Source: a virus (taxonomy: Duplodnaviria > Caudoviricetes). From it: a DNA stretch of 55,958 bases. The DNA is taken from positions 1-55,958 of the IMG/VR virus record IMGVR_UViG_3300014720_000044, one strand, 5' to 3'. The notes beneath the pieces are model-generated. The model had not been told where the DNA came from. It saw only the letters and a program-made list of their open reading frames with translations, and did not search any database. The position numbers and the translations under genes are program-made. Positions 1,630 to 48,415 of this stretch are shown here, one piece after another; within the stretch, counting starts at the first letter, position 1, and each line of letters starts with the position of its first letter.

Positions 1630-3660
1630 ATGGCAACAAGAATGCAACAGCGCAGAGGAACTGCAGCAACATGGACTGCTGCTGATCCAATACTTGCAGC
1701 AGGTGAAATCGGTTTTGAAACTGATACAAATAAATTTAAAATTGGCGATGGTAGTAATCGCTGGGTAACTCTTGCCTACTTCGTAGATGGCAACTCGATT
1801 ATCGATGGCGCCCCAGGTCTACTTAATACTCTTAACGAACTCGCTGCAGCCGTTAATGATGATCCTAACTTCTTTGCCACTGTTGCAACTAATTTATCAA
1901 ATCACGAAGCAGATACTACAAATGTACATGGTATTGCAGATACAGCCAATCTTGTTGTAACAAATACAAATCAAACATTAACCAATAAGACAATAAATTT
2001 ATCTAATAACTCTGTCAGTGGCACAGTTGCTCAATTTAATACTGCCCTTTCAGATGGCAATTTTGCTACCTTAGAAGGTACAGAAACATTAAGTAATAAA
2101 ACATTGAGCAGCCCAACAATTATTGTTGGCGCTACCACTGTTTCAGACACAGAAATTTCTTATCTTGATGGTGTAACATCATCGATACAGACTCAGTTAA
2201 ATGCAAAAGCAGGTCTAACTGGGGCTTCCTTTACTGGAACACTTACAAATACAGCGTCAATATCAACTACTGATACTACAGCGTCAACTTCTCCTACAAC
2301 AGGATCTATCGTTGCTGCTGGCGGTATTGGTGTAGGCGGAGACGCACACATAGATGGAGACGTAGTAATTGGCGGTAACTTTACTGTTAATGGTACAACA
2401 ACCACAGTAAGTACACAAGACTTAGTAATACAAGATCCTTTGATTTATGTTGGAGAAAGTAATCCTTCAAATATAGTTGATCTTGGTATTGTTGCTTCAT
2501 TCGATGATGGAACATATCAGCATACTGGTTTTGTTCGTGATTCATCTGCTGGAACATGGAAATTATTTAAGGGCGTAACTGATGAACCAACCTCAACAGT
2601 TAATTTTGCACAAGGCTCTTTAGATGATCTTGCTGTAGGAGGACTATCTGCTACTTCATTAACAGTAGGAGATGTTTCAAATACAGAAATAGGATATCTA
2701 AATGGAGTAACTTCTGCAATACAGACTCAGATCAATGGCAAGATTTCTGCTTCAAGTTCAGATACACTAACTAATAAAACAATAAACATGACAAATAATG
2801 GTTTGTCTGGAACTATAGAACAATTTAATGCAGCGCTATCTGATGAAGATTTTGCTACATTAAGTGGAACAGAAACTTTACAAAACAAAACAATATCTTA
2901 TGCAAATAATACTATAACTGTTCAGGTTACAAATGTTTCTGATCTAACTGCTAACGCATCAGAAATAAATGTATTAGATGGCATAACTGCTTCAACTGCA
3001 GAATTAAATATTTTAGATGGAGTTACTGCAAGTGCTTCAGAAATTAATGTATTAGATGGGGCAACGGTATCAGCAGCAGAACTAAATATTCTAGACGGTG
3101 CTACTGTATCAACTTCAGAAATAAATTATTTAGGTGGAGTCACTTCTTCTGTTCAAACTCAACTAGATTCTAAGTCACCGTCGGCAAGTCCAACATTTAC
3201 AGGAACTGTTGTTCTTCCATCCACAACATCAATCGGTGATGTTTCTTCAGATGAAATATCAGTTCTTAATGGGCTGACAGCATCAACAGCAGAACTAAAT
3301 ACCCTCGACGGATTGACAGCATCAACCGCAGAGTTAAATATTCTAGATGGATTGACAGCATCAACTGCTGATTTAAATATTCTTAATGGTGTAACTGCTT
3401 CTACTTCAGAAATTAATATTCTTGATGGGGTAACTGCATCAACAACAGAAATAAACTATGTTGTTGGAGTAACCTCTGCTATACAAACTCAAATGAATGC
3501 TAAGGCTCCGTTGGCAAGTCCGTCGCTAACTGGTACTCCAACCGCTCCAACTGCTTCACTTGGAACAAATACAACCCAAATTGCAACAACAGCATTTGTT
3601 GATGCTGCAATTGAGGCGCTGGCAAGTAGAAATCTAATACTTGACGGTGGCGGGGTATAA
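1630..3660 (+). CDS. Fibre protein with Mtd_N-like N-terminal domain and 13 aa repeats
   Basis: N-terminus QRRGTAATW...PILAAGEIGFETDTxKFKIGDG resembles the major tropism determinant/hyaluronidase N-terminal domain; also APGLLNTLNELAAA, TxTLTNKT and SPxLTGTPTAPT fibre motifs. Confidence 0.8.
   Translation: MATRMQQRRGTAATWTAADPILAAGEIGFETDTNKFKIGDGSNRWVTLAYFVDGNSIIDGAPGLLNTLNELAAAVNDDPNFFATVATNLSNHEADTTNVHGIADTANLVVTNTNQTLTNKTINLSNNSVSGTVAQFNTALSDGNFATLEGTETLSNKTLSSPTIIVGATTVSDTEISYLDGVTSSIQTQLNAKAGLTGASFTGTLTNTASISTTDTTASTSPTTGSIVAAGGIGVGGDAHIDGDVVIGGNFTVNGTTTTVSTQDLVIQDPLIYVGESNPSNIVDLGIVASFDDGTYQHTGFVRDSSAGTWKLFKGVTDEPTSTVNFAQGSLDDLAVGGLSATSLTVGDVSNTEIGYLNGVTSAIQTQINGKISASSSDTLTNKTINMTNNGLSGTIEQFNAALSDEDFATLSGTETLQNKTISYANNTITVQVTNVSDLTANASEINVLDGITASTAELNILDGVTASASEINVLDGATVSAAELNILDGATVSTSEINYLGGVTSSVQTQLDSKSPSASPTFTGTVVLPSTTSIGDVSSDEISVLNGLTASTAELNTLDGLTASTAELNILDGLTASTADLNILNGVTASTSEINILDGVTASTTEINYVVGVTSAIQTQMNAKAPLASPSLTGTPTAPTASLGTNTTQIATTAFVDAAIEALASRNLILDGGGV
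2962..3486 (+). repeat. 39-nt (13 aa) ELNILDGVTASTA-type repeats in two blocks (5 and 6 units)
   Basis: Blocks 2962..3156 and 3253..3486 read from the translation. Confidence 0.85.
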
Positions 3661-3703: not shown

Positions 3704-5212
3704 ATGGCAATTAGAATGCAGCAAAGAAGAGGAACCGCAGCACAGTGGACCTCTGGAAATCCAACATTAGCAGCAGGCGAAATTGGATTTGAAACAGATA
3801 CAGGTAAGTTTAAGGTTGGAAACGGATCATCGACCTGGACTCAACTAAACTACTTCGTAGATGCAAACTCTATACTAGACGGAGCGCCAGGCGCCCTTGA
3901 CACACTTAACGAACTTGCTGCTGCACTTAATGACGATCCTACCTTCTTTACTACTGTTGCAACCAATCTCTCCAACCATGAAGCAGATACCTCAAACGTG
4001 CACGGTATTGCAGATACAACAGTTCTAGTAACACTAAGTGGAACTCAAACTCTAACAGGCAAGACAATTTCTGCAGTAGATAATACTGTAACAATTAATG
4101 CTGCCGATATTACTGATGTCACTGCTTCTGCAGCAGAATTAAACATTTTGGATGGTGTTACAGCCTCTACAGCAGAAATTAATCTTCTTGATGGTGTTAC
4201 AGCAACCACTGCTGAAATTAATACTTTGACAGGAATTACTGCAAGCGTATCAGAACTAAATGTTCTAGACGGAGTTACAGCGTCTACTGCTGAACTAAAT
4301 CTACTAGACGGCGTTACAGCATCCACTGCTGAATTAAATATTCTTGACGGTGTTACCGCAACTGCAGCAGAATTAAATATTCTTGCTGGAGCAACACTTT
4401 CTACTACTGAATTAAATTATGTAGATGGTGTAACCTCTGCAATTCAGACACAATTAAACACATTAGATACAGATAAGGCAGATCTTGCATCACCAACATT
4501 TACTGGTACAACAACAACAGATGATCTTGTTGTGGATGGAGACTTAACTGTAAATGGTACAAACTTTGTAGCAAGTGCAACATCTATCACAATTGAAGAC
4601 AATATTGTTCAATTGGCACATGAAAATGCTGCTAATACAGTAGACCTTGGTATTGTTGTTGGTTATAATGAATCAAGCACAGCAAAACACGCAGGTATTG
4701 TAAGAGATGTTTCTGCTAATAAATGGAAACTTTTTAAAGGTGTGACAACAGAACCTTCTACAACAGTAGATTTTACACAGGGATCTCTTGACGACCTTGA
4801 GTTAGCAAATCTTGCTGCAACAGAAGTTGCTGCTACAACTCTTAAGTATGGAGCAGGCGCACTAAGCGTTGAAACAGAAATTGACAAGAAGACTCCAGAA
4901 CTTTATACATTTACTACAGATGCAACTACAGCAAGAACACTTGCTTTAGGTGATAAGTTTGGATCTCTTAAGTTTACATCTGCAAGCGCAACAACTTTAA
5001 CAGTTCCAGCAAATGCTGATGTAGCATTCCCAACAGGCTCTTATGTTGAACTTTATCAGTTTGGCGCAGGACAGGTAACTGTATCTCCAGCATCTGGTGT
5101 AACAGTCAGATCTACTGACTCTCAGGTTAAACTAAGAACTCAGTACTCTTCAGCGGTTTTGATTAAGGTTGACACCAACGAATGGCTGTTGACTGGTGAC
5201 TTGACTGCTTAA
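3704..5212 (+). CDS. Second fibre protein with Mtd_N-like domain, paralogue of 1630..3660
   Basis: First ~105 aa closely match the 1630 product; same 13 aa repeats and WKLFKGVT-EP...QGSLDDL block; distinct C-terminal domain ending WLLTGDL; AAGGAG RBS. Confidence 0.8.
   Translation: MAIRMQQRRGTAAQWTSGNPTLAAGEIGFETDTGKFKVGNGSSTWTQLNYFVDANSILDGAPGALDTLNELAAALNDDPTFFTTVATNLSNHEADTSNVHGIADTTVLVTLSGTQTLTGKTISAVDNTVTINAADITDVTASAAELNILDGVTASTAEINLLDGVTATTAEINTLTGITASVSELNVLDGVTASTAELNLLDGVTASTAELNILDGVTATAAELNILAGATLSTTELNYVDGVTSAIQTQLNTLDTDKADLASPTFTGTTTTDDLVVDGDLTVNGTNFVASATSITIEDNIVQLAHENAANTVDLGIVVGYNESSTAKHAGIVRDVSANKWKLFKGVTTEPSTTVDFTQGSLDDLELANLAATEVAATTLKYGAGALSVETEIDKKTPELYTFTTDATTARTLALGDKFGSLKFTSASATTLTVPANADVAFPTGSYVELYQFGAGQVTVSPASGVTVRSTDSQVKLRTQYSSAVLIKVDTNEWLLTGDLTA
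4136..4447 (+). repeat. Eight tandem 39-nt (13 aa) ELNxLDGVTASTA repeats
   Basis: Read from the translation of 3704..5212. Confidence 0.85.
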
Positions 5213-5237: not shown

Positions 5238-7313
5238 ATGTCAAAGAAGATTGCGGGTAAGTCGTTTAAAGTAGTGTCACGCTTAAAGGCTTTGGTTAGT
5301 GTTATTGAAGGTTTTAACAGAGCAAATGCCGCCGACTCCGCAGTTGCTGGATCAGGATTAGGTAAAACTGATTCAGGTGCCACATGGAACGTATTTAGAG
5401 GATCCTGGGGTATTTCAAGCAATAAGGCTTCATCTTCTACATCGCATTCTTCATATCCATTAGCAACACTTAATTTTTCTAAGGAAGATGTAACTATAAC
5501 TGCAAAAGGCGTAGGTCCTGGCGTAGGAACTGCCTTCTGGGTAACAGATTCTGATAACTGGTGGGGAACATATGTAGACACTACAAATGTCTGCTCTGCT
5601 TATGGCACTCAGGCAAATACATACGGCGTTGTAGGTTCAACATGTAATGCATACGGAACTCAAGCAAATACTTACGGTGTTGTAGGATCAACTTGTAATG
5701 CATATGGAACTCAAGTAAATGCCTATGGCGTTGTAGGGTCAACTTGTAATACTTATGGAACAAAGGTTAATGCATATGGAACTGTCTGTAATGCTACTAG
5801 CACAAACTATGCAACTGCAATAGGTACATATGCAACTCAATGTAATGCAACATCAACAAATTATGCAACACAGGCTAATGCTTATGGAACTCAATGTAAC
5901 GCTTATACTTCAAATTACGGATGTGTAACTTACGCAACTCAGCAAGTAGGAAATACCTGTAACTCTTCTAGCCCAAACTATGGATGTAGTACATACGGAA
6001 CTCAGTTAGCAAATTATACCTGTAATGCTTTTAGTACTAACTATGGCACTAAAATAAATGCTTATGGAGCCACAGGAAGTACTTGTAATACATATTCATC
6101 TTCTTCTGGAGCAAACTATTCTTGTAAGACGTTTGCCACCAACTATTCCACATTTTGTGCTGCTTACGGCGGTTTGTCATATTCTTGTAACTCATATAAT
6201 TATACTTCAAGTGCAGGATCATCCTGTCAGGCTTTTTCATCTAGTTCTAATACAAACTATACATGTAACACATATGGAACTGGCTATACATGTAATTCTT
6301 ATAACAGTTTTTATTATAACTGTATAGCATATTCTAAGAACACAAACTGTAACGCTTATGGAAGTAGCAAGAGCACTAACTATAGTTGCAATGCGTATAC
6401 AGCGTTTACAACATATAGCCTAGGAAACTGTAAATCTTTCAGTTCATCTCCTATATGTCAAGCCTATGGAAATAGTGCAAGCACAAATTGTAATGCATAT
6501 TCTTCAAGCGCATTCACTACTTATACTTGTAACGCATATACGACAAACTTTGGTGCTACTGCATGGGGAACTCAAGCAACAGGAAGCACATGTAATTCTT
6601 CTAGTGCAAATTATGGACAGGTCTGTAATGCTTATGCTGTATCTGGTTATACCTGTAACGCTTCAAGTGCCAATTACGGAACTAATTGTAGCGCCAATGG
6701 TGTAGTAGGAAGTACATGTAACGCTTATGGAACAAAGGTTAATGCTTATGGAACTATAATTGCTGGATATACATGCAATACATTTGGAACTGTGGTTGCT
6801 AATTATGTAACAAATGTTGCTGGATATACATGTAACACATATGGCACACAGGCTAATGCTTATGGAACTCAATGTAACGCTTATACTTCAAATTACGGAG
6901 CAACTACATATGGAAATGTATGCAATACTTATACATCAAACTATGGACCTACTGCATATGGATATGTCTGCAATACTTATACATCAAACTATGGACCTAC
7001 TGCATACGGATATGTATGTAACACATATGCCAATAGCGACAGCGTTAAGGTTATAAAGAGTATTGCAGGAACAGTAAATACTGTTGCAAACTTCTCCTTT
7101 AATGCAGCGGTTCAGGCAGTAAAAACAATACTATCAGGAAATACAATCACTGTTCGTGGATATTCTAATGCAAATGCAACCACTCAAATTGGGTCAGATC
7201 AGTCTACCTCGTCTACTGGAGCCACAAAGGCCAAGAGTCATGGTATACTTAAAGGAGCAGTAACTTATAGCCCTGCTGCTACCAACGTAATTGACCAGTT
7301 TGAGGTGGAATAG
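5238..7313 (+). CDS. Cys/Tyr/Thr/Asn-rich repeat protein; probable fibre or adhesin with a mirror-symmetric Cys ladder
   Basis: AAGGAG RBS; 36 Cys confined to residues 119-594 in C-N-[AT]-Y-type repeats, flanked by Cys-free beta-rich N- and C-terminal parts. Function inferred from position in the fibre cluster. Confidence 0.8.
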   Translation: MSKKIAGKSFKVVSRLKALVSVIEGFNRANAADSAVAGSGLGKTDSGATWNVFRGSWGISSNKASSSTSHSSYPLATLNFSKEDVTITAKGVGPGVGTAFWVTDSDNWWGTYVDTTNVCSAYGTQANTYGVVGSTCNAYGTQANTYGVVGSTCNAYGTQVNAYGVVGSTCNTYGTKVNAYGTVCNATSTNYATAIGTYATQCNATSTNYATQANAYGTQCNAYTSNYGCVTYATQQVGNTCNSSSPNYGCSTYGTQLANYTCNAFSTNYGTKINAYGATGSTCNTYSSSSGANYSCKTFATNYSTFCAAYGGLSYSCNSYNYTSSAGSSCQAFSSSSNTNYTCNTYGTGYTCNSYNSFYYNCIAYSKNTNCNAYGSSKSTNYSCNAYTAFTTYSLGNCKSFSSSPICQAYGNSASTNCNAYSSSAFTTYTCNAYTTNFGATAWGTQATGSTCNSSSANYGQVCNAYAVSGYTCNASSANYGTNCSANGVVGSTCNAYGTKVNAYGTIIAGYTCNTFGTVVANYVTNVAGYTCNTYGTQANAYGTQCNAYTSNYGATTYGNVCNTYTSNYGPTAYGYVCNTYTSNYGPTAYGYVCNTYANSDSVKVIKSIAGTVNTVANFSFNAAVQAVKTILSGNTITVRGYSNANATTQIGSDQSTSSTGATKAKSHGILKGAVTYSPAATNVIDQFEVE

Positions 7314-7768
7314 TGAGTGATTATAAAGATAAAAGTCTCAAAGATTTTGAGAAAGAGTTTAAATCAGAAAAGCGTTATCGCTATTTATCAAAAATAAAAA
7401 ATGCAATAAATATTTTCCCACCATCTGTACCAAAAAATAATAAAGTAATGGATGGCCCAGATATCTCTAGTATTACTGAGCATATTGCATTTGTAATAGA
7501 TGATGAGATTGTTGAAATTATGCATTGCCAGCCAAAGTTGGCAGCAATTCTTTTGAGCAGTCCAACTATTGTAAAAATAGAAGATGGCAAATTTGCTAAA
7601 CCAGGATGGCAATATAAAGATGGAAAAATAATAAACCCTGCTGGCCAAGAGTCTGAAAATGTGCAACAACAAGAAAGAGATTATTTGCCAACATTTAAAG
7701 AATATTTATTAAATCAAGGAAGTCCAAAACTTTTAACATTTAAAGAATATATAGAAAGTATGAAATAA
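7313..7768 (+). CDS. Hypothetical protein
   Basis: GTG start overlaps the upstream stop, GAGGTG upstream; core IAFVIDDEIV...LAAILLSSP...GWQY. Confidence 0.7.
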   Translation: MSDYKDKSLKDFEKEFKSEKRYRYLSKIKNAINIFPPSVPKNNKVMDGPDISSITEHIAFVIDDEIVEIMHCQPKLAAILLSSPTIVKIEDGKFAKPGWQYKDGKIINPAGQESENVQQQERDYLPTFKEYLLNQGSPKLLTFKEYIESMK

Positions 7769-7769
7769 C

Positions 7770-8531
7770 ATGAAAAGAATATCATTTAATTTACGTCCTG
7801 AAGACAGTATTCTAGATATCCTGCCACCTGAGCCAGGAACTCAGTTTATTCCACAATGGTACAGAGATGGTGAAAAGTATATAGATAGAGAAACTGGTTT
7901 AAAAAATCCCAAAGATCCCTCAAAAAGAGCAGGGGGTATGAAGTCCTGCGTTCCATTTCTCGATGCTATGATTTCTGGATATATACAACAACTATCTGTT
8001 GCTATTAGAATAACCAAGAATAACGGAACAGATCCTGTTGAATGGGAATATGTAGAAAAAGACAAAGACGGAAATTATAATAATCTTAATATAGAGTTTG
8101 GCATTATTAATGAAAGAGATGGAGATTTAGGAGAAACAATTCCTAGACCTTTTGGATATTCTCATAATCATTTGGCATTTACTGGTAAGTGGGGATGGCA
8201 AGTTCCTAAAGGATGGAGCGTTTTGGTTACTCACCCATTAAACAGATTTGATTTACCCTTTACAACAATGAGCGGAATAATGGAAAGTGACAAGTTTATG
8301 TCTGCTGGTAATGTACCATTTTTCATTCAAAAAGATTTTACTGGTGTAATAGAAAAGGGCACTCCTTTATTTCAGATAATTCCAATAAAAAGGGCAAAAT
8401 GGCTTGGATATGTAAAAAGAAAAATAGTTGATGAAAAGGGCTTATTCTTTTCTAATAATGCAAGAGCAGTTCCTTATGGATTTTATAGAGACAAGATGTG
8501 GGAGAAAAAAGTATATGATATGGAAAAATAA
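7770..8531 (+). CDS. Uncharacterised protein, possibly dUTPase-like fold (DUF6065-like)
   Basis: Motifs PQWYR, KSCVPFLDAMISGY, THPLNRFDLPF, GIMESD, IEKGTPLFQIIP; family label is tentative. Confidence 0.65.
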   Translation: MKRISFNLRPEDSILDILPPEPGTQFIPQWYRDGEKYIDRETGLKNPKDPSKRAGGMKSCVPFLDAMISGYIQQLSVAIRITKNNGTDPVEWEYVEKDKDGNYNNLNIEFGIINERDGDLGETIPRPFGYSHNHLAFTGKWGWQVPKGWSVLVTHPLNRFDLPFTTMSGIMESDKFMSAGNVPFFIQKDFTGVIEKGTPLFQIIPIKRAKWLGYVKRKIVDEKGLFFSNNARAVPYGFYRDKMWEKKVYDMEK

Positions 8532-9321
8532 GATACAAAAAAGAGCAAATACTAGAACTGCTTCTTCAGAAGGAGTAATAGAATTTATAAATTTAGATAG
8601 GGTTGTAGAAGGTGAAATGTCTGGCAAACCAGACTATATTACACCAGCAAAGATAACTTTGCCAGAGTGGTATAGAAAACTTCCTATTACAGATAAATTA
8701 TTTGAAAAAGATAAGATTGAAGATCTTACTGCAAAAAGATGTATACCTATATTAGATGCCATGACTACTGGCTATCATATGGTAACTACTTCAGATTATT
8801 ATTTTAATTATGATAAAGAAAAAGAAGAGGGTAGTTTTTCTGGCAGGGAAGATATAATTTCTCAAAAGCCAATAAGTATGCATCCTCTATCTCAATTATC
8901 TACTGCAAAACTATCTCCAGAGTTTATTGAATATGCTTATAAATGGGGAAACACATGGACAATAAAGACTCCTCCAGGATATAGTTGCATTTTTACAAAT
9001 CCTCTTAATGGATTTGAAAGTCCATTTTATACTCTCGATGGCGTAGTCGATACTGATACTTATTTTCAGCCAATCTTATTCCCGTTTTTAATGAAGAAGG
9101 GATTTGAAGGACTTATTCCAGCAGGAACTCCAATAGTCCAGATAATACCTTTTAAGAGAGATGACTGGACTATGAAAATTAATAATAATTTTTCTCAAGA
9201 TTTATTTGATACATACTCTTCAGAAAAGAATTTATACGAAAGTCAAAGATACGATAAAGAAAAGAAACCACTTGGCGGTATGTATAAAAGAGATTATCGT
9301 GTCAAAAAGAAGTATATTTAA
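8515..9321 (+). CDS. Paralogue of 7770..8531, possibly dUTPase-like fold
   Basis: Motifs PEWYR, KRCIPILDAMTTGY, TPPGYS, GVVDTD, IPAGTPIVQIIP. Start moved from 8428 to the in-frame ATG at 8515, which has GGAG upstream and much less overlap. Confidence 0.65.
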   Translation: MIWKNKIQKRANTRTASSEGVIEFINLDRVVEGEMSGKPDYITPAKITLPEWYRKLPITDKLFEKDKIEDLTAKRCIPILDAMTTGYHMVTTSDYYFNYDKEKEEGSFSGREDIISQKPISMHPLSQLSTAKLSPEFIEYAYKWGNTWTIKTPPGYSCIFTNPLNGFESPFYTLDGVVDTDTYFQPILFPFLMKKGFEGLIPAGTPIVQIIPFKRDDWTMKINNNFSQDLFDTYSSEKNLYESQRYDKEKKPLGGMYKRDYRVKKKYI

Positions 9322-11463: not shown

Positions 11464-14400
11464 ATGTCTAGTCCATCAAATCTATACGCCGAAAACATAT
11501 TCGCAGAGCATCCTCAAATATTGTGGGCACTCGATGATAAAGCAGACTATGTTTCTTTAATTCCTGATGCAAACAGAGATACTCTTACTTGGACAATAGA
11601 TGGTGGCACCTCTCAATTAACCGAAGATTTTGTTGATGCGCCATTTCCAGATAGTGTTATTAACAAGATTACAGTTTCATCTGTTACATCAGAATTTTTT
11701 TCGGTAAGCCTAATAAGCCCAACAATAGTAAATCTTAATCAGTTAAACGAAACACTGAAGACATTTTCTATTGGTTCTTATTTTTATACAACAAGTCCAT
11801 ACGCATTGAGCGTTGAGATTGGCTATAGGTATTATGATTCAGCATTAGAAGAATATGTAGATGTATTAAAATCTTATGAAGCATCCATAAAAGATAAATG
11901 GTTCTTTATATCAGAAACATTCAGCCCAGAAGAAGAAAACTCTACCATACAATTACTGATAAAATTTAATTTCTTGGGTCAGTCTTCAACATTATCAGAT
12001 TATGATTTTTATATTAATGGAATAAGTATTGGACAATGGGCGGAAGAGTTTCAGTCAACATCATTAGGAGTTGATACTATTGACTTGCCTTCAAGTGTAG
12101 ATTTATCAATTAACCTTACAGACGATAAAGTAATTGAAGCAGATGCATACGGATTATCAGTTAGCCCTGGATATTATTTTGTTAATAAAAACTCTCTTGT
12201 TGCTAAAAATTTTGGAGTTTCTTTAGTTTTTGGATCTCAGAACGTTACAAAGATTTATAATAATCAGGGCAAGCCATCCATCATAGTTCCATCATTAGGT
12301 ATGATGTCTGAAAGCGGAAGATATAAAGAGTTTACTTTAGAGTTTTGGATTAGAGCAAATAATTCCTCATCCGAACCTAAAAGAATTATTGGGCCAATAG
12401 GGTCTTCTGACGGTATATATTTTGATGGCCCATTTTTAATATTAAAGATAGATAATAATTATGGATCTTATTACATAGGACAATGGGAAAGACCAATGCT
12501 TATAGATTGGCGATATGCCAACAACATGTCTTCGGTTTTAATTAATGGAGAAGAAGTAATATCTATTAATTTTAATAGCGAACTATTGTCATTACAAAGC
12601 GATAAATCTGCTACTCTAAAAGATAAAAACTGGATAGGGTTTTATGCATATCAGAATATAGAGCCTATAGAAATAGATTGTGTTGCTATATATCCATACA
12701 TGGTTCCATCTTTAGTAGCAAAAAGAAGGTTTGTATTTGGTCAAGGAGTTCAATTCCCAGAAAACTTAAATGCATCATATGGTGGAAGTTCTGTTGTTTT
12801 TGACTACCCTTTTGCAGACTATACAAAAAATTATTCATATCCCAATCTAGGTTCATGGACTCAAGCATCTCTAGATAATGTGATAGAAGAAAACGGATAT
12901 TTAACAATTCCGAATGTTCAATCTCCTGCAATAGTTACTAATAGTTTAACTAAAAAACAATCAGAAATGCTTGAAGATTGTAATGCTATAAACAATCCAG
13001 TTCTTGATCCAGACCTATTTTTAAGATTAAAGCCAAACTCTACTTGGAATAGCACTGACTCTTACTTATACTTTGACACCTTTTCTTTGATTAATCAAGG
13101 AACATCTGCGTTCTATGGCTTGTTTAAAAAAGACGCTGGCTTTTCTGGAACTCAAGTTTTAATGAGACTTGAAGATCAAAATTCTAATTATTTTTCTATA
13201 GAATGTGTCAATAATGATGTTAATTATATTTTAAAGTATGGAGAAAATGCTCCAGAAATTATATATCAATCAGTCGGAGTTCCAAATGAAAAAACATTCC
13301 CAGTTGGAATTATTACAAATACTTTTAAGAATTATTATGGAGAGAATGTTGCTCAATTTTTTGCTAATGAATCTTTGCTTAAGATGTATGTAGGTGGAAC
13401 GAAAGATTTTGAAAAAACATTTACTGGTAAAATTTATAAAGTTGCTTTATGCTCAGAAAAAAATATGTATGAAATACAGTCAGTATTCAATGTACTTGGA
13501 GTCCCAAAAGATTATGAAAACATATTTAATCTATACGGTCCAGGAATAGACTACGACGGCGGGGAGTATGATAGAGAGTTCTGGGATTATTATATTGGAC
13601 AGACACAGTCTAATGAAGATGAACTAGATTTAATTTCTCCTACTTTAGAAAACTTTTCGTTCTGTCCTTCATGCTTTATAGAAATAAAGTTAAAAGACCA
13701 CGATCCTAGTTTAGGTATAACCCCTAAAAAATATTTTGATAGTTTTTATATAGATGCTTCTGTTCGTGGGTCATGGAAAGACTATATTCCGCTTTCTTAT
13801 TTTGGACAATATGTATCTGATGAATACGACAATAAAGTGTTTGATCTTGATTTTATTCAGTTTAACATTAACTATCCAGCACCAACTAAATTTAAAGAAA
13901 CAGAAACAATAGATGCAGATGGATGGACATATGAAGAATTAAGTGCCAGTTATTCTTATCCAGAACAGAGAACCTATGAATCTTTAGATAATTATTTATT
14001 TACTGGTTATATCAATTATGAAGATCTGGCAGAAAAATCTGTAAAGACATATTCGTATGATACTTCAGATGCCATTGTTAAAACATATATTACTTTTGAG
14101 TATTTAGAGCAGGGGGCCAATGCGGTAGACTCATACTTTGTTAATACTGAAAGTGTTCCTAAAAATGGAGTTGTTGAGCCAGGATCAAATTGGATAAACA
14201 CTAAATATGAGGTTGTAGATAATGTTATTATTTATCCACCTAACGGCATAGATTTTAACGATCTTGCTATTAGAATTCACATTGAGTTTAATGTTGACGG
14301 AATAAATTATCATCCTATTCAAATTAAAAATTTAGAGTTAGCGTCTCAAGCATTCAATTACGTTGGAACAAATAGCATAGGCACAAGGTTTGGTACAAAT

Positions 14401-15234
14401 GTTTATCCTTATTCAACAAACGGATATTATTTTAATTATAAATCCAAGAATCCGTTTTTGATCTATAAAGGATCTTCGCCTTATTTATATTTAACTAGAC
14501 ATTCTGGAATTGAGATAAGAGGAGACTATGATCCTATTATAAATAGAGGAATAGCAGTTCCAGTTAATTTGAATCAATCAGAAGATTATGAAGTAATGGC
14601 TATGCAAAGTTTAATTAGGTTTAATGGAGACTTTTTCCCTTATGCTCCAACTAAACTAATGCAAATAAATTCAAAAAATAAAGTGATAAAACTTTACATG
14701 GTTCCAAACCACCCTACTGGAAAAAGAGCAAAAATTTATGCTATAGATGGAAACAGCGGAGAACTGTATGACGGAATATCTTTTTATATCAATGGAAAAA
14801 TTGTAAAAGATCCAGTAATTAATATTAATGAATGGGCAATGCTTGGAATGGGCTTCGGCACAATTCTAGACTTCAAATCATACTCTGGATCAATTATGAT
14901 AAATGGCCCTATCATTTTTAATAGCCTTTCTTTCTACCAAACAACCAACCTTAAAGAAATCCAAAAGGTAGAGAATAGACCCTGGGCACGTGTCAAGTTC
15001 TCGGCTGAGGGTACATTTGAATGGGATTATTGGAGCAACTTCTTCTTGTGGCAGGGCATGCTAATACAGTCTTCTTCAAGTTACTATGGAGTAAATCCAG
15101 AAAATGTATACAAAGCCTATACTGGTACAAATAAGATTATAGTTGGTGACGATGCTACTTTTAGTATTCAAGAGTATGAATATTCTATATTTAAGGATGT
15201 TAAATGGCAGTCCACAATCTCAGATGCCGTATAG
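11464..15234 (+). CDS. Large probable virion protein (1256 aa), beta-rich with a LamG/ConA-like segment
   Basis: Long ORF; FTLEFWIR and YINGxxV segments; TGATAAAAT at 11446-11454 just upstream. Confidence 0.6.
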   Translation: MSSPSNLYAENIFAEHPQILWALDDKADYVSLIPDANRDTLTWTIDGGTSQLTEDFVDAPFPDSVINKITVSSVTSEFFSVSLISPTIVNLNQLNETLKTFSIGSYFYTTSPYALSVEIGYRYYDSALEEYVDVLKSYEASIKDKWFFISETFSPEEENSTIQLLIKFNFLGQSSTLSDYDFYINGISIGQWAEEFQSTSLGVDTIDLPSSVDLSINLTDDKVIEADAYGLSVSPGYYFVNKNSLVAKNFGVSLVFGSQNVTKIYNNQGKPSIIVPSLGMMSESGRYKEFTLEFWIRANNSSSEPKRIIGPIGSSDGIYFDGPFLILKIDNNYGSYYIGQWERPMLIDWRYANNMSSVLINGEEVISINFNSELLSLQSDKSATLKDKNWIGFYAYQNIEPIEIDCVAIYPYMVPSLVAKRRFVFGQGVQFPENLNASYGGSSVVFDYPFADYTKNYSYPNLGSWTQASLDNVIEENGYLTIPNVQSPAIVTNSLTKKQSEMLEDCNAINNPVLDPDLFLRLKPNSTWNSTDSYLYFDTFSLINQGTSAFYGLFKKDAGFSGTQVLMRLEDQNSNYFSIECVNNDVNYILKYGENAPEIIYQSVGVPNEKTFPVGIITNTFKNYYGENVAQFFANESLLKMYVGGTKDFEKTFTGKIYKVALCSEKNMYEIQSVFNVLGVPKDYENIFNLYGPGIDYDGGEYDREFWDYYIGQTQSNEDELDLISPTLENFSFCPSCFIEIKLKDHDPSLGITPKKYFDSFYIDASVRGSWKDYIPLSYFGQYVSDEYDNKVFDLDFIQFNINYPAPTKFKETETIDADGWTYEELSASYSYPEQRTYESLDNYLFTGYINYEDLAEKSVKTYSYDTSDAIVKTYITFEYLEQGANAVDSYFVNTESVPKNGVVEPGSNWINTKYEVVDNVIIYPPNGIDFNDLAIRIHIEFNVDGINYHPIQIKNLELASQAFNYVGTNSIGTRFGTNVYPYSTNGYYFNYKSKNPFLIYKGSSPYLYLTRHSGIEIRGDYDPIINRGIAVPVNLNQSEDYEVMAMQSLIRFNGDFFPYAPTKLMQINSKNKVIKLYMVPNHPTGKRAKIYAIDGNSGELYDGISFYINGKIVKDPVININEWAMLGMGFGTILDFKSYSGSIMINGPIIFNSLSFYQTTNLKEIQKVENRPWARVKFSAEGTFEWDYWSNFFLWQGMLIQSSSSYYGVNPENVYKAYTGTNKIIVGDDATFSIQEYEYSIFKDVKWQSTISDAV

Positions 15235-24693: not shown

Positions 24694-27600
24694 ATGGCTG
24701 ATGTTCAATCGAATATTCATGTAAATATCGATACGTCTGAAGCGTTAGCCAGTATCAAACTTCTACAAAAGCAGATATCAGCATTCCATGCATCTATGGC
24801 GAAAAGTGGCGCTGCAGCAGCAGCCGTCTCCGCCAATATGCAGCAAAACCTAATAAACTCTCTTAATGCTACAGGCAAATGGTCTGCTTCTATGCGGACA
24901 GTTAAGACTACAACAGAATCATTTACAAATGCCCTAGAAAAAAATAAACTTTCAATGCGAGAATACTTTAGGTATTCTGCTGGAGCAACAAGAACATTTG
25001 GAAGATTTTTTAAATCAGAATTTGATACTATCAATAAGGTAGCAAGAGAACGAGTAAAAGATTTACAGACACAATATATAAAGATGGGTCGTGATGCAAA
25101 CGGTGCAATGAAGGCTATTGCCGTTAGACCACTAGCCCTAGACATGAAGAATCTTGGTACTCAAACTGCAATAGCAGCACAGAGACAGGCTATGCTTAAT
25201 CAATTGTTGAAGCAAGGCTCAACAAATATGCTTAATTTTGGTAAGAATACTCAGTGGGCTGGACGTCAGTTAATGGTTGGTTTTACAGTTCCTTTGGCTT
25301 ACCTTGGAACTGCAGCAGCAAAAACATTCATGAAGTTAGAAGAACAAGCAATTAGATTTAAGCGTGTTTACGGAGAGTTGTTTACAACTGGTCAAGAAAC
25401 TGATAAGATGCTTGCAGAGATACAGTTACTTGCAAAAGAATTTACTAAGTACGGCGTTGCTGTTGAAAAGACTATGGAGATGGCTGCAACAGCAGCAGCA
25501 AGCGGTAAGATGGGGGCAGAACTTCTTGCACAGGTTAATGAGGGAACAAGACTTGCAGTCCTTGGTGGAGTTGAACAAGAGCAAGCATTAGAAACAACTA
25601 TATCTTTAACTAATGCATTTGGTTTAGCAGCAGAAGAGTTAGCGGGTAAGATTAACTTTCTTAACGCAGTTGAAAACCAGACCGTCGTATCTATTGAAGA
25701 TTTAACAATTGCAATTCCAAAAGCGGGTCCAGTTGTAAAACAATTAGGTAGAGATGTAGAAGATCTAGCATTCTTCTTAACTGCAATGAAAGAAGGCGGT
25801 ATCAATGCATCGGAAGGCGCTAACGCACTTAAGTCTGGTTTAGCATCTTTGATTAACCCAACAGACAAAGCAAGCAAGATGCTTGCTGGCATGGGTGTAA
25901 ATATAAATGGAATTGTTGAAGCAAACAAGGGAAATGTTAAAGGCATCGTAATTGATTTTGCTAATGCTTTAAATACCTTAGACCCACTAAATCGTGCTCG
26001 TGCAATTGAACAATTATTTGGAAAATTTCAGTTCTCACGTTTGTCAACATTATTCCAAAATGTTATTCAACAAGGAAATCAGGCAAGTCGTGTTTTAACT
26101 TTAACACAAGCAACCACAGAAGAACTTGCTATATTGGCAGAACGAGAACTAGGAAGAGTAGAAGAATCTACTACTTATAAATTTAAGAAGGCCATAGAAG
26201 ATCTAAAAGTAACTCTTGCTCCAGTTGGAGAAGAATTCCTTAAGGCAATCACTCCAGTAGCAGAATTTGTTGGAAAGATGCTAGAAAAGTTTAATAATCT
26301 TGGCGACGGGACAAAGAAATTTGTTGTTATATTAACAACTCTGTTAGGTGGAATAGGTCCTATATTCCTAATGTCCTTTGGTCTTTTGGCTAACGGTTTG
26401 GCTAATATTATTAAACTATTTGTAAGCATGAAATCTGTTTTCAATCGTACTGGTCAATCTTCAACCATTTTAGGAAATCAAACTCAATTTTTAACAGTAG
26501 AGCAGGCTCAGGCAGCAGCAGTAGCATCATCACTTGATCAAGTGCATGTAAAACTACAACAAACATTTACTTCTGAAGCAGCAGCCCTAAATGCATTAAC
26601 TCAGGCGTATCAAAGAGCAATAACTGCACAAAGAGGTTTTGGTGGAGGAATAATTGGAAAGGGTCGTAAAGGATTTGCTTCAGGAACTAAAAAGGTAAAA
26701 CCATTTTATTTTTCAAGAGGAACAGACACAGTTCCTGCAATGCTTACGCCTGGAGAAGCAGTAATACCAGCAGGTCCAGCACAAGATCCTGCAAACAAAC
26801 CAGCAATTTCTCATATGATTGCAGGCGGAACTATGAAGCAATTTGCTGTTGGAAATATTAATGTTGGTGGAACTAATTATCCAGTACAGGCTAGAAATAG
26901 ATCAAGCGTTACAGCAATACAGTCTATTGTTGATCAAAGTTTAGGAACTGTTGATGATGCAATTAAGATTTCTCTTAGAGAATTAGTAAACGAAACTAGA
27001 GTAACGGTTGCTAAATTTAAAGAACAAATGAGACTTACTCTTGCTTCACAAGGCAAAGTCGCAGGACCACTTTTTGCTAAGTCTGATTGGGAGACTAGGT
27101 CAAGATCATATAATGCAAGCGGTGCAGGAGAAAGAAGAACAATTCAAGATCAATTAAGATCAGATCCATCTAAAGGTGGAAGAGGAATTGTAGCAGGACA
27201 AGCAGAATTAGATCAGGCAAATGCAGCAGCAAAAGCAATTAAAGCAAAAATGACAGAACTAGGAGCAACACAAAAACAAATTAATGCTGCTGTTCAATTA
27301 GATAGAGCACATGTTATAGAAATGTCAAATTCTAAGAAAAAATTATTGGCTGCATGGCATTCAGATGTATGGGTTGCTCAAACGGGCGCAGAGAATAATT
27401 TATCAAACTCATTAAAAAATTCAGAAAAAAATAGAAGAATTTATTTAGATGTATTAAAAAAGTCTGGAGCAACTCAGGCAGAAATTACTGCCATAACTGA
27501 TAAAGTTACAAAAGGTATTGCTTTAACAGGAAAAGAGTTGGAGATTCAGGGCAAGGTTCTTGCCAAAATAAATGCTGATATCGCATCTGGTCAAATCAAA

Positions 27601-30600
27601 GCAACATCAGTATCTAAAAACTTTAGACTTTATTCTGCAGCAGTTGCAGAAGCAGCAACAGCAAGAACTGCAGTTACAAAATCTCAAGGTCCTAAAATTG
27701 TAGCAGCAACAAAAAGAACAGAGGCCGAACTAAGAAGAGGAATTGAGAGAATTGCTCTTGCTATGCCAAAGGCTGCTGAAGAAGTTTTGCAGGTTGCGTC
27801 TCCGTCAAAAAGAATGCAAAAAGTTGGTCAAGAATCTGGTCGTGGTTTAGTTCTTGGAGCAAAAGAGTTTGTAGATGATGCAAGATTGGCTGGTACACAA
27901 TTAGGAACTGCAATTGCACAAGGAGCAATGTCTCAGTCTCAAATGGCAGCAGCATCAAGAGCAGCATTATATGGTACAGGTCCAATAGATCCAGCACAAA
28001 AGTCATTAAGAAGACAATTACAAAAACAAGCAAGATTAGATCGGATTGCACAAAAGAGACTATTCACTCAATCTAGTATTACTGGAATGGTCGCTGGTGG
28101 TGCAGCAGGCGGAGCAGCAGGTGGTGGAGGAAATAAAGGACGAGGTGGATTCTTTGGAAGATTCAGAAGACCAACTCCACAGGATCCAGATGGCGACGGT
28201 ATACCAAATCAAAGAGGCATTGGTATGGGTGGAGTCGGAATGGGTCTATCTATGGCAGCAATGGCTGGCTCTATGGCCCCTGGCAAGGTAGGAGAGATAT
28301 CTCAAAAATTAATGATGCCATTGATGATGTTGACAATGATAGGGCCTATGCTTAAGAGTCCAATTGGTGTAGCCGTTGTAGCAATAGGAGCCATGGCTGC
28401 TGCAATAATTAAATTAAGAATGGATTTTGATAAGGCTCAAGACTCTGCAATAAAATTAAGAGAGTCTATGATTGCAAGTAGAGACTCTATGCGTAACCTT
28501 GCCAAATTCTCTGGCAAAGTTACTGCTGGAGAAATTATGCAAAGAAGAAGTCAGGAAAGATTTGGATTAGTTGGCGCACAATCAGGAAAAACAACATTTG
28601 GAGAGTCTTACGTTCAAAGCAAAGAAGGCAAGGCAGTTATGGATGCCACAGTTGAATCATTAAAGACTCGTGGCGTCAAGTCTACAGGAGAAGATTTAAG
28701 CAATCAATTAATGAGCAGTGTCTTGGCGGGAGCGATAACTGCAGATCAGGCAAAATCAATAGCATTGAATATTGGACAAAAGACTGGGAATTATGGTTTA
28801 GGATTTTCAGTTACTGCTCAAATAAATGAATTAATTGGTCCTAATGGAGAAAATTTAGAAAAAGAACCCCTTGACATAAGAATGAAATTAATAGAGCAGA
28901 CAGAAAAACAAAATAAGCAATTATTTAATCAATTAGGAGATAGAGGCGTTGGCAGAGGCGGATTTATGAATCTTGGCGCAGTTAATCCAAAAGTTGCTTT
29001 AGGAGGAACAACCGCATTGGGTGCTGGTATAGGCGCTGCAATTGGAACAGCAATACTTCCAGGAGTAGGAACTGTTATAGGAACTGGATTAGGTGCTATT
29101 GCAGGTGCTACTACTGGATATTTTGCAACCAGAAATGAAAATAAAAAAGCAGGTCAAATGTCTGGCGCTGTTGTTGCATCTCAAAAAGGTGCGATGGAAC
29201 AACAACAGGAAATGCTTGACTCCTTAGATATTTATTATGAAAAGAAGATAAAAGAACTTGAAGTAGAAGGAAAGATTGCGGAAGCAAAAGCCCTTCAGAT
29301 AAAATATGATCAAGATAGAAATACTCTAGTTGACAAAGGTGCACAACTTAGTAAGGACATAATGACAAGTTATGGCTCTACAAGGGGTAATGTTAGAAGT
29401 GCTATGGATACTGGAATAAATAAACTTCTAACTCAAAGATTTAAGGGTACTGATGAGATTCAATATTTAGATGCTGCTAAGACATTATTAGCAGGCTCTG
29501 GCCTAACTGCAGAACAGCAATATTTAATTAAAGTAAAAATGTCTACTGGAGAATTAACTCCAAGCCAGCAAGTATTTTTATTCAGTAACTTTGGAGATGA
29601 TAAAGAAACAATTCAAAGATATATGGACATCGTGACTAACTTTAGTGCAAGAACTGGAGAAAATGCTACACGTGTCATGAATATGTTTACTAATCCAGAT
29701 GGAACTCCTAATACAAAAATGCAAGCAGAGTTTATAACTAAAGTTTCTGATCAAACCGATGATGCAGCGGCATCTAAATATGTAAACTTCTTTGCTGAAG
29801 TAGCAAACACAAATGGCGTTTTTGATATGACAGCAGTTCTTAATTATTATCTCCAAAATCCAGAGGTAGCATCTAGTGTTCAAGATATAATTGATAATAT
29901 TGATAAGAATAAAGGAAAATTAACATTAGATGTAATGACAAACTTCCTTCCAGAAAATGTAATGGGAGCAATTGACAAGACTTACTTTGACAAATTATCT
30001 CAAGATGAAAGAATGACATACCTTAAAGAAATTGCAACAATAGTAAATATTCCAGATCCAGTAATTCAGGCAGACCCTGAGTTTTTAAAGTGGCAAAAAG
30101 AGGGTGCGAACTATAACGGAGTTTCTTATTCAGGTAAAAGTATTGGCGAGCAGGTTGCTGCATATAGACAATTTCAGCCTTGGAAGGTAACTCAAGAATC
30201 AATTCAGCAAGCAGCAACACTTGATCCAGGTAACAATAAAGGTCCTAGTAAAGGGCCAAACGCTTCACCATTAGATGATTTGGTTAAGAAACTAAGAGAT
30301 GTTCGCAAGAATCAAATAAAGGTAACAGAGGGTTGGGCTGCTTCCCGTAAAGTTTTAGATTCACTATTCGGTGGCAAAAAGACCATTGATATATTTGGCG
30401 GTATAGAACAAGACCTCAATCGTCTAGGAGCCAAGGGTAACTTCATTGAATTAATAGTTGGCATGGATCCAAAAGAGTATGAAAATCGCAAGAGATCATT
30501 ATTTAGGTTTGATAATAAAGATAATATTATTGGATTAAAACGTGATGCTAAAACAATTCAAGAAGCATTAAACTCAATAGTGCTTGGAGATTTTGTTTCT

Positions 30601-32964: not shown

Positions 32965-33635
32965 TGGCAATAGGTAGTTATATTGCGGGTAGAAAGAAGT
33001 ACTCACGTCCACAGGCTATGCTATGGGCTAACGATCCTGGAACATTAGTAGAGGTAGGAAATCCTCCAAAGAAAATATACGTCCCTGCAGGATTTGAAAT
33101 AGGACAAGATCCTGGGTCAGAAACAGATAAATCTGTCTATGATCAATTCTTGATTTTGTCAGATGATAATAGACAAGAGATAGATTTTAGACCTACAAGA
33201 ATTGAAAGACGTGAGCGTATGATTAATGGAAGAATGAGGTCATACCACATAGCAGATAAACTAACTTTAAGTACTTCTTGGCAAATGCTTGCTTCTAGAT
33301 CTTATGGTTTGTTCCCAGAGTTTAATCCAACAACTGGAAAATCTCCTCACACTCAAAATAACAGTATTGAGTTTACAACCGACGGTGGTGCTGGAGGAGT
33401 AGAAATGCTAAGATGGTATGAAACTCATCAAGGTCCTTTCTGGGTTTACTTGGCATATGACAAATATACAAACTTTAAAAATCTTGACGGGGAGATAGAC
33501 AATGACTCTTATGCACATCTACCGCAATACAACCAATTGATACAAATGTACTTTGCTGACTTTAACTATACAGTTGTTAAAAGAGGCGGAAGTCATGATT
33601 TCTGGAATATTAATATAACGCTGGAAGAGGTATAA
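32964..33635 (+). CDS. Probable distal tail protein
   Basis: Directly after the TMP; RMINGRMRS and terminal ITLEEV pattern. Confidence 0.65.
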   Translation: MAIGSYIAGRKKYSRPQAMLWANDPGTLVEVGNPPKKIYVPAGFEIGQDPGSETDKSVYDQFLILSDDNRQEIDFRPTRIERRERMINGRMRSYHIADKLTLSTSWQMLASRSYGLFPEFNPTTGKSPHTQNNSIEFTTDGGAGGVEMLRWYETHQGPFWVYLAYDKYTNFKNLDGEIDNDSYAHLPQYNQLIQMYFADFNYTVVKRGGSHDFWNINITLEEV

Positions 33636-48100: not shown

Positions 48101-48415
48101 CGAATTGTTAGTGCTGTTCCTGTAGATGAACTAAAGAACTCAAATTCTGCACTCATTAAATTCTTAAATTATAAAATGCTTCCGTATAAAGACGATGAAT
48201 TGTTTGTGGTATCATTTAAGCCTAGGATAACTAAAGCAGGTAAAAAAATGGCATCTCTTACTCTTGCAGATACCTCTAGAGAGTTACATTCTGTTACCGT
48301 TTTCCCAACGGCATTTGCAAAAGCATATATGAAAATTGAAGAAGGTAGTGCCTATAAATTTGAGTTTGGTAAGACCAAAGATGGAACTGTTATATTGGAG
48401 GATATAAATGTTTGA
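45140..48415 (+). CDS. dnaE: DNA polymerase III alpha subunit (family C)
   Basis: PHP motifs HLHTHFSLFDG and ITDHG; GRGSSAGS, catalytic PDIDTD, HAAGVV, KIDALGL, YSFNKSHAVAY. Confidence 0.96.
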   Translation: MNYVPLHLHTHFSLFDGIGLPTEYVDRAQKLGMPAIAITDHGSLSGHREMYRAAKASGIKPILGIEGYMCEDRFDQRDKEDRTTPLDMVYNHIILLAKNKVGLENLNKLNEIAWTEGYYKKPRIDFEVLSKYKEGIIVSSACPSGIIAKSIELGELAMAKKYIKWFKEEFGDDYYLEVMPHNNELINQTILELADEFKVKPIVTPDCHHVDSSQKEIQELKLILNTYSNKIQKDATYEKSKKQGDLMKRLDYLYGADRQMSFNKFDIHLLSYEEIQAAMEKQAIFRTDIYENTVDLASKVEDYDIKDGLNLLPVQYKNPDKELKDLAVAGLKAKGLDKNKEYISRLEEELKVIQDKNFGPYFLVVQSMISWAKKEGIMVGPGRGSSAGSLLCYALGITDIDPIQHGLLFFRFINPERNDFPDIDTDIQDSRRDEVKDYLVRQYKHVASIATFLEFKDKGVVRDVSRALNIPLADVNKVLKLVDTWDEYCSSKTTAWFREKYPEVEQYGEQLRGRIRGTGIHAAGVVTSKNPIFRYAPLETRSSPGSDERIPVVAVDMEEAEKIGLIKIDALGLKTLSVINDTINIIKEREGTEIKLLEIDMSDSKVYQMLSEGYTKGIFQCEATPYTNLLIKMGVKSLSQLAASNALVRPGAMNTIGKDYIERKHGRQAVNYLHQTMKPFTEETYGCILYQEQVMQACVELGGMTMAEADKVRKIIGKKKDAKEFNEFQEKFVSGASRFVSPNTARDLWHDFEAHAGYSFNKSHAVAYSTLSYWTAWLKYYYPLEFMYSLLKNEKDKDARTEYLIEAKRMGISIKLPHINDSDKDFKIEGKGIRFGLSAIKYISDTIADRYIAARPFTSFKQLEEFTFTKGNGVNSRALQALRIVGAATFPDNPRNDNEIRDNLYEYLGLPEFTQTVPSHFHAFINPVEDFEEKGSFILMGMVKGIKRGKGWSRVEILDKTGSIGVFDEEQTIIEAGRSYLALCTDNRIVSAVPVDELKNSNSALIKFLNYKMLPYKDDELFVVSFKPRITKAGKKMASLTLADTSRELHSVTVFPTAFAKAYMKIEEGSAYKFEFGKTKDGTVILEDINV

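Follow-up and report, generated by a model that had tools for sequence, protein, structure and literature searches.

Matched length and cysteine changes on the two arms of a phage stalk gene: long-range covariation consistent with selection for register

How do two halves of one gene keep their repeat numbers, spacings and cysteine residues matched when the sites concerned can be 1.4 kb from each other? The question is raised by a 691-residue open reading frame (ORF), here called the stalk ORF, in a virus of the Caudoviricetes (IMG/VR record IMGVR_UViG_3300014720_000044). The window analysed is the whole of that record, 55,958 nucleotides (nt), which is estimated to be 52% complete. The preliminary description of this DNA reported coordinated duplications and paired Cys losses on two arms of the ORF, and pointed to either strong selection for register or an unusual recombination route. 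The first of these is supported by the comparison of sequences described below, which suggests that the long-range covariation is maintained by selection for register. The main features of the gene are as follows (aa, amino acids).

5238..7313, plus strand: whole stalk ORF, 691 aa, end coordinate including the stop codon; a predicted split beta-sandwich with an inserted Cys-ladder stalk
5592..6293, plus strand: left (ascending) arm, Cys1 to Cys18, aa 119-352; intervals 17 three times, 14, 18 twice, (9,12) twice, 21, 13, 11, 10, 13, 13, 9
6291..6323, plus strand: putative turn, the central interval Cys18-Cys19, aa 352-362, CNSYNSFYYNC; centre of the mirror symmetry
6321..7019, plus strand: right (descending) arm, Cys19 to Cys36, aa 362-594; intervals 9, 13, 14, 9, 11, 13, 21, (11,10) twice, 19 twice, 14, 16 three times

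The mirror pattern in the stalk ORF is beyond chance. All 36 Cys residues lie within aa 119-594 (nt 5592-7019), in a Cys-periodic insert of ~480 aa that is rich in Thr, Ser, Ala, Asn, Gly and Tyr; these six make up 491 of the 691 residues of the protein, which has only two His. The Cys-Cys intervals, read from the N-terminus, are 17,17,17,14,18,18,9,12,9,12,21,13,11,10,13,13,9,10,9,13,14,9,11,13,21,11,10,11,10,19,19,14,16,16,16, a near-perfect mirror centred on the 18th interval, which would form the tip of the stalk. The differences between mirrored intervals total 11, compared with a mean of 71 (standard deviation 10.6) after shuffling, and none of 200,000 interval shuffles was as low as 11, nor was any of 200,000 in which the tandem blocks were kept intact. 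Counted from the two outermost Cys residues, the offset that accumulates between the arms is at most 3 aa across 233 aa. The positions of Cys i and Cys (37-i) sum to 713-716 for 18 of 18 pairs, and the runner-up register of the same four-wide span holds nine. The facing intervals reported earlier, three 17-mers opposite three 16-mers, two 18-mers opposite two 19-mers and (9,12) twice opposite (11,10) twice, were all found where they had been placed.

The earlier claim that the expected Cys residue is replaced on both partners at once fared less uniformly. All seven tetrad pairs on which it was based are present, with position sums of 713-716: ANTY/PTAY (twice), VNAY/ATTY, VNAY/ANAY, IGTY/VANY, ANAY/VNAY and INAY/ATAW. 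Using the pattern [AVIPL][NTGA]x[YFW], which was composed after the data had been seen, each arm contains nine such tetrads, of which seven on the left face one on the right and two per arm are unpartnered, and an alternative register holds six pairs. The pairing therefore stands only weakly above the repeat background in a single gene, and the real support for paired Cys loss comes from relatives of the protein.

The stalk ORF matched no Pfam family at an expectation value (E) of 0.01 or less and no PHROG family, and a tblastn search against 50,697 phage records gave no match. Metagenomic relatives were found, 40 proteins in a first word-indexed search and 119 in a second with P0006 as the query; an exhaustive search with a threshold of E<=1e-3 gave 248 homologous clusters (50% identity), which form a large viral, unannotated family. 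A literature search, with supplements outside its scope, found no description of the family. In most relatives the alignment covers ~115 aa at the N-terminus and ~95 aa at the C-terminus, which flank a middle of highly variable length. When the two domain halves were located with local hidden Markov models, 137 of the 150 listed 50%-identity representatives had both halves complete, with inserts of 52-376 aa (median 140). The number of Cys residues in the insert was even in 129 of them, zero in seven and odd in one (P0041); that is, even in 129 of the 130 Cys-bearing representatives. Since the counts vary widely across the family, for example from 4 to 50, even parity has been maintained through many changes. 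Among the 121 representatives with at least eight Cys residues in an even number, 72 have a mirror score better than their shuffles at <=0.05, and 31 of them reach <=0.001; the failures include subfamilies whose arms differ in Cys pattern but have the same unit length. One relative, P0188 (519 aa), has a C-terminal extension of ~65 aa with one extra Cys, possibly the result of read-through or of fusion to the ORF that follows.

The lengths of the two arms vary together. In 55 proteins with a common conserved tip motif, arm lengths were taken from sequence anchors, with no symmetry assumed; across the 22 distinct states left and right lengths are correlated with r=0.994. The difference, left minus right, is 18-28 in 19 of the 22, the outliers being P0007, P0234 and P0241. 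In subgroup A nine out of ten proteins have as many outer 9/10-residue units in the left arm as in the right, at six different values:

3 left, 3 right: two proteins
5 left, 5 right: three proteins
6 left, 6 right: one protein
7 left, 7 right: one protein
9 left, 9 right: one protein
10 left, 10 right: one protein
2 left, 3 right: one protein, P0007

The (7,4) modules of the same subgroup occur as 1/1, 2/2 or 3/3, and the inner interval strings shift identically on both arms. The inserts that distinguish P0001 from P0002 lie at two mirrored sites, and in P0316 compared with P0320 one unit has shifted across a landmark interval on both arms. The P0015 and P0020 groups carry their unit types, 'CC + 13-14 aa' and 'C-x5-C-x8', on swapped arms, suggesting that the module can be built in either orientation.

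Closely related sequences show the changes themselves. Thirty clusters at 90% identity comprised 243 members, 201 of them complete, with 52 distinct Cys patterns. Paired Cys changes were present in four clusters, and all five pairs fell at mirror-equivalent positions, within 0-3 aa:

P0019 and P0209: changed positions sum to 474, register constant 474
P0220 and P0023: changed positions sum to 511, register constant 511
P0253 and P0339, first pair: changed positions sum to 453, register constant 452
P0253 and P0339, second pair: changed positions sum to 454, register constant 452
P0289 and P0363: changed positions sum to 395, register constant 392

Unmatched changes were also found. An odd Cys count occurred in 8 of the 52 patterns (11 of the 201 sequences), through single-arm unit losses or unpaired Cys changes. 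Six patterns have lost one unit on a single arm (P0007, P0234, P0405, P0409, P0416 and P0443/P0445); five of these are represented by one sequence each and P0443/P0445 by two, whose longest contigs are equally long. In the other two patterns a Cys change has no counterpart on the opposite arm: P0369/P0370/P0374, represented by three different sequences, and P0459. Some of the unmatched variants may result from assembly collapse of tandem repeats, which is unlikely for the three-sequence case. The preliminary description had set its claim against common natural variants with single-arm indels or unpaired Cys changes. Such variants do exist, yet they are rare (11 of 201, plus P0241), the pattern that is expected if mutation strikes one arm at a time. 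Small indels of 1-4 aa behave differently, being often unpaired (P0028/P0224, P0034/P0237, an 11-versus-7 interval in cluster P0289, and P0320/P0412), and their frequency suggests that register is enforced per unit and per rung, with a few residues of slack, rather than per residue. Paired small indels occur as well, with mirrored intervals of 10/7, 9/6 and 8/5 in P0010/P0016/P0018, -1/-1 in P0243 compared with P0350, and -2/-2 in P0289 compared with P0362. Logan contigs, which can neither phase the two arms nor reveal rare variants, break at the repeats in two runs that account for 95% of the sampled words and may be the source sample; there they span 5754-7313 with no indels, and the three left 17-mers lie outside their coverage. 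A relative that is ~85-95% alike in a third Logan run is gap-free over 5238-5900 and 6755-7058.

Why should two halves of an insert have to stay equal in length? A possible answer lies in the domain that flanks the insert.

5238..5591, plus strand: N-terminal half of the base domain, aa 1-118, ending in a conserved NWWG.YVD strand; AlphaFold2 predicted local-distance difference test (pLDDT) >90 for ~aa 20-120
7020..7310, plus strand: C-terminal half of the base domain, aa 595-691; AlphaFold2 pLDDT >90 for ~aa 590-691; conserved in homologues, with G669 invariant

Near-invariant residues of the N-terminal half among homologues are F26, R28, W50, G55, Y73, P74, W101, D104 and W108. In AlphaFold2 predictions, made with 150 rows for the window protein and 81 rows for the relative P0024, both termini of the window protein (pLDDT >90) form one beta-sandwich. 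In the P0024 model the strands flanking the insert continue as pairs (E100-116, E121-128, E346-353, E358-375) and then the confidence collapses. The predicted base domain is probably a sandwich of the concanavalin-A-like type with a long insert in one loop, a fold name that is a lead rather than a result. The top Foldseek rows for it are lectin or glucanase jelly rolls, none of them significant (best E 0.098), and the concanavalin-A-like rows in the ESM Atlas have template-modelling (TM) values of 0.52-0.69 normalised by row, every row being marked 'under the bar'. Viral look-alikes in the same atlas are 194-199 aa long, without room for an insert. A search of PDB sequences with the family profile gave no match at E<=1. 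If the insert leaves and re-enters one domain as predicted, the chain must go out and back as two antiparallel arms, and it would be this topology, and not a cause at the DNA level, that obliges the two halves to keep equal length.

We consider it likely, on these grounds, that the insert is an out-and-back stalk with disulfide cross-links between its arms, and that selection for register acts as a filter on repeat slippage within each arm and on occasional arm-to-arm copying. A single beta-sandwich would be formed jointly by ~115 aa at the N-terminus and ~95 aa at the C-terminus, with the insert between them, and Cys pairs joining residue i to residue n+1-i would hold the antiparallel arms in register. 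These pairs would most likely be inter-arm disulfides, formed once the particle reaches oxic lake water. Gain or loss of a unit, or loss of a Cys residue, on one arm would leave a bulge or a free thiol, and such a change would be purged by selection unless a mirror-equivalent change followed on the other arm. In this way repeat numbers and interval lengths would come to match, and Cys residues would be lost in pairs, between sites as far as 1.4 kb from each other. The underlying mutations could be ordinary ones, namely tandem-repeat slippage or unequal recombination within each arm, with blocks now and then copied or gene-converted between arms in direct orientation. The sequences and models show the mirror register, the paired changes among relatives, the uncommon unmatched variants and the split of the conserved domain; we infer the disulfide chemistry, the antiparallel arrangement within a single chain, the fibre-like shape and the host-recognition role. 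Inter-arm disulfides would be the simplest reading because the Cys number is strictly even, because Cys residues more than 150 residues apart are lost pairwise at mirror positions, and because there are only two His.

Several observations weigh against this proposal. Phage proteins fold in a reducing cytoplasm. AlphaFold2 gave a pLDDT <50 across the stalk, both in the window protein (aa 129-588) and in P0024 (aa 128-345). The fold assignment of the base domain is weak, as Foldseek found no match to it in the PDB at E<=0.001 (best 7oa8, E 0.098). Within the family, 8 of the 121 scored representatives do worse than half of their own shuffles, and some subfamilies are not mirrored interval by interval, with (6,9) facing (14,1) or 7-mers facing 9-mers; for these a one-to-one ladder is too simple. 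The insert is free of Cys in seven complete representatives, and two Cys-free homologues, P0033 and P0036, carry 7-residue GSNYG-type repeats on both insert halves. Thus the two-arm architecture appears to be independent of Cys, and disulfides are not essential to it. At the population level, the three different sequences P0369, P0370 and P0374 carry 25 Cys, and P0241, with two member sequences on two contigs, lacks one two-Cys unit of the right arm, suggesting that unmatched states can persist. P0037 is a third homologue without any Cys.

The DNA of the arms bears on the alternative that one event alters both. Tandem repeats have a period of 51 in the left arm (5597-5761) and periods of 57 (6713-6868) and 48 (6880-7018) in the right arm. 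No inverted DNA repeats were found within the stalk gene, which rules out a DNA palindrome as the cause of the mirror. The left copies L1 and L2 are identical at 40 of 51 nt with one amino acid difference, and their right partners R3 and R2 at 46 of 48 nt with none; the two pairs differ in apparent age and so do not look as if they arose together in a single event, although R2 and R3 could have been made alike by gene conversion. One block is shared between the arms:

5727..5921, plus strand: left copy of a colinear inter-arm block, aa 164-228, with 65% aa identity to 6699-6899
6699..6899, plus strand: right copy of the colinear inter-arm block, aa 488-554

The two copies would face each other in the proposed hairpin, their ends summing to 718 compared with a register of 714, and the internal Cys residues of the right copy are displaced by five alignment columns, so that 14,18,18 on the left becomes 19,19,14 in mirrored order on the right. 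The last 60 nt of both blocks (5862-5921 and 6840-6899) form a direct repeat that is 97% identical, and the depth of a 54-nt Logan contig (5868-5921) is roughly doubled in two runs, which is what a two-copy element should give. In P0006 a 58-aa block (aa 171-228 and 402-459) is 100% identical between the arms and faces itself, 3 aa off register. P0240, P0011 and P0232, also of subgroup A, have their longest arm-to-arm direct repeats facing each other, 0-3 aa off, and the (7,4) sub-unit of this subgroup is not mirrored but has one reading direction, common to both arms. An arm-to-arm direct repeat scoring at least 10 was detected in 5 of 115 representatives, facing each other in two, with 0.4 expected by chance; self-facing direct repeats are therefore rejected as a general rule. 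From these alignments it appears that copying between arms in direct orientation does occur, as a secondary route and not as the explanation.

Could a concerted mutational route nevertheless be the main cause, so that one DNA event alters both arms, with selection on separate events playing a lesser part? The candidates would be tandem duplication of a self-pairing tip segment, or gene conversion between facing homologous blocks. The colinear blocks that face each other in the window gene, the facing repeats of P0006, P0240, P0011 and P0232, and the shared reading direction of the (7,4) sub-unit, which suggests direct copying, all speak for such a route. We nevertheless regard it as unlikely, because the outer arrays that covary belong to different sequence families (17-mers and 16-mers here, CATYSTVPGN and CNATNATAYP in subgroup A) and so cannot be copies of each other. 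The differing ages of the mirrored copies, the small number of representatives with an arm-to-arm repeat, the existence of single-arm variants and the lack of inverted repeats in the gene also argue against it. The unusual recombination route of the preliminary description is thus not required, since the mirrored copies differ in apparent age and the gene has no inverted repeats.

A separate possibility is that the Cys partners are real but lie between subunits of an oligomeric fibre, or bind metal instead of forming disulfides. Phage fibres are usually oligomers, and failure of AlphaFold2 on a monomeric stalk is what an obligate oligomer would give; the needle of phage T4 gp37 is described in PMC6957217 as a trimer holding seven iron ions with His ligands. 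We judge this quite improbable for the window protein, as an insert that exits and re-enters one domain has its halves tethered side by side anyway, the protein has only two His, and strictly even Cys numbers with pairwise loss suit two-partner bonds better than four-ligand metal sites. A three-copy complex prediction for the short relative P0090 scored 0.00, which weighs neither for nor against oligomerisation. That the mirror is merely a chance product of low-complexity tandem repeats, without structural meaning, can be given almost no credence. The region is indeed repetitive, and the non-Cys tetrads form six pairs in the alternative register compared with seven. However, this reading is refuted by the shuffles, with and without intact tandem blocks, by the even Cys numbers across a diverse family, and by paired changes landing at mirror positions.

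The needle chain of T4 gp37 reportedly runs out to the tip and back, according to a crystal-structure study of 2010. By analogy it appears to be the closest functional counterpart: both are elongated phage host-recognition elements (putatively so for the stalk) with regularly spaced ligand residues in register on both strands. The window protein is not a member of that type. The needle of gp37 is six-stranded and trimeric, with iron coordinated along it by His-x-His motifs; the window protein has 36 Cys, two His in its whole length and a base domain made from both termini, and it lacks similarity to any Pfam or PHROG family. Cystine-ladder beta-hairpins such as theta-defensins, protegrin and tachyplesin are ~18 residues long with 2-3 rungs. 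They resemble the proposed stalk in having antiparallel strands and serial parallel disulfide rungs (putative in the stalk), where loss of one Cys leaves its partner unpaired, but the stalk would have 18 rungs at spacings of 9-21 aa along 476 aa, in an array of tandem repeats placed inside a folded domain. The ultralong bovine antibody complementarity-determining region (CDR) H3 is likewise an insertion in a beta-sandwich loop, with ascending and descending strands of matched length that project a distal element. Its stalk is short, has no disulfide rungs along it and carries its disulfides in the distal knob; unlike the window stalk, it is not a repeat array.

Beta-solenoids of the type of PF21300 (LbR_Ice_bind) share with the stalk short repeats of 12-15 aa rich in Thr, Ser, Asn, Ala and Gly, with regular Cys or Asn. 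The Tenebrio antifreeze protein is an ice-binding beta-solenoid rich in Cys and Thr. A one-way solenoid would leave unexplained why a unit matches in length its partner on the opposite arm and not its neighbour. Membership of this grass antifreeze beta-roll family, with coils of 14-15 aa, was considered and rejected, as the window protein has no Pfam match at E<=0.01; one of 81 relatives, P0024, does match, at 30.2 bits compared with a cut-off of 30. Concanavalin-A-like lectins and glucanases (GH43_C2, 3-keto-disaccharide hydrolase-like, SO2946-like) have a two-sheet sandwich like the predicted base, with no significant match, and we know of no such family that carries an insert of this kind. 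Going by these likenesses, the protein would best be filed with the out-and-back phage fibre elements, its putative disulfide-ladder repeat stalk being undescribed. A bolder view, which we put forward tentatively and hold at slightly less than an even chance, is that it represents an undescribed fibrous class, a single-chain out-and-back 'cystine-ladder ribbon' of tunable length that arose from a loop of a lectin-like domain and serves freshwater phages as a fast-evolving host-recognition stalk. Length would be tuned by a module of one left unit plus one right unit, contributing one or two disulfides.

The genes around the stalk ORF are consistent with such a role.

3704..5212, plus strand: upstream tail-fibre-like gene with an Mtd_N N-terminal domain and a tail-fibre PHROG match; its C-terminal domain is a conserved neighbour of the stalk gene

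The stalk ORF is preceded by two tail-fibre-like genes in succession (1630-3660 and 3704-5212), both of which have Mtd_N at the N-terminus and match tail-fibre PHROGs. Of the second, only the C-terminal ~110 aa are conserved beside the stalk gene in related phages, and among 80 related viral loci there are 39 in which this domain ends no more than 200 nt upstream of that gene. The same gene has tandem peptide repeats of the 'TA.ELN.LDGVTA' type at ~aa 140-235. On the 3' side of the stalk ORF lie a small ORF, two paralogous phrog_7084 genes, and then genes for ribonucleotide reductase (RNR), portal, protease and head protein; a small ORF follows the stalk gene in 50 of the 80 related loci, and phrog_7084-like genes in 44. 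The paralogous ORFs, 7770-8531 and 8428-9321, overlap, match phrog_7084 (unknown function), and the second has a sub-threshold DUF6065 match. Judging from gene order, the stalk ORF appears to belong to a phage tail-fibre or host-recognition gene module, membership here meaning synteny only. The possibility that it is the target of a diversity-generating retroelement was rejected: no RVT_1 match, and so no reverse transcriptase, was found in the 55,958-nt, 52% complete record, and Mtd_N occurs only in the two upstream genes. The record also contains very large ORFs on the same strand, 24694-32964 (2756 aa), 33635-38062 (1475 aa), 45140-48415 (1091 aa) and 11464-15234 (1256 aa), the last of which has no Pfam or PHROG match.

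A freshwater actinobacterium is the probable host, although the grounds for this are weak: some homologues come from sources named as Actinobacteria and Nanopelagicaceae metagenome-assembled genomes, and the RNR gene has a 64% nt match to the Actinomycetia phage DSL-LC01. WhiB, an actinophage marker, was not found in the half-complete record. L003-L005, the nearest phage relatives, share 86% identity with the window in the RNR protein. Their stalk (ORF 6001-7728) is wholly different: 12 units of 12-13 aa on one arm are opposite 12 units of 11-12 aa on the other. The remainder of the genome appears to evolve far more slowly than the stalk, which, differing wholly between otherwise close phages, may be a determinant of host range.

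If the ladder is real, fibre length and rung number could be read from sequence across a large uncharacterised family of lake-phage proteins. The gene would also be an unusually clear example from nature of compensatory evolution over a long range within one gene, involving indels as well as Cys pairs; on the ribbon reading these would be natural compensatory indels between sites more than 1 kb apart, with the matched states fixed and the rare unmatched states visible in populations. As the stalk is beyond AlphaFold2 modelling and has no sequence relative in the PDB, its structure, once solved, would probably prove to be a new fibrous architecture.

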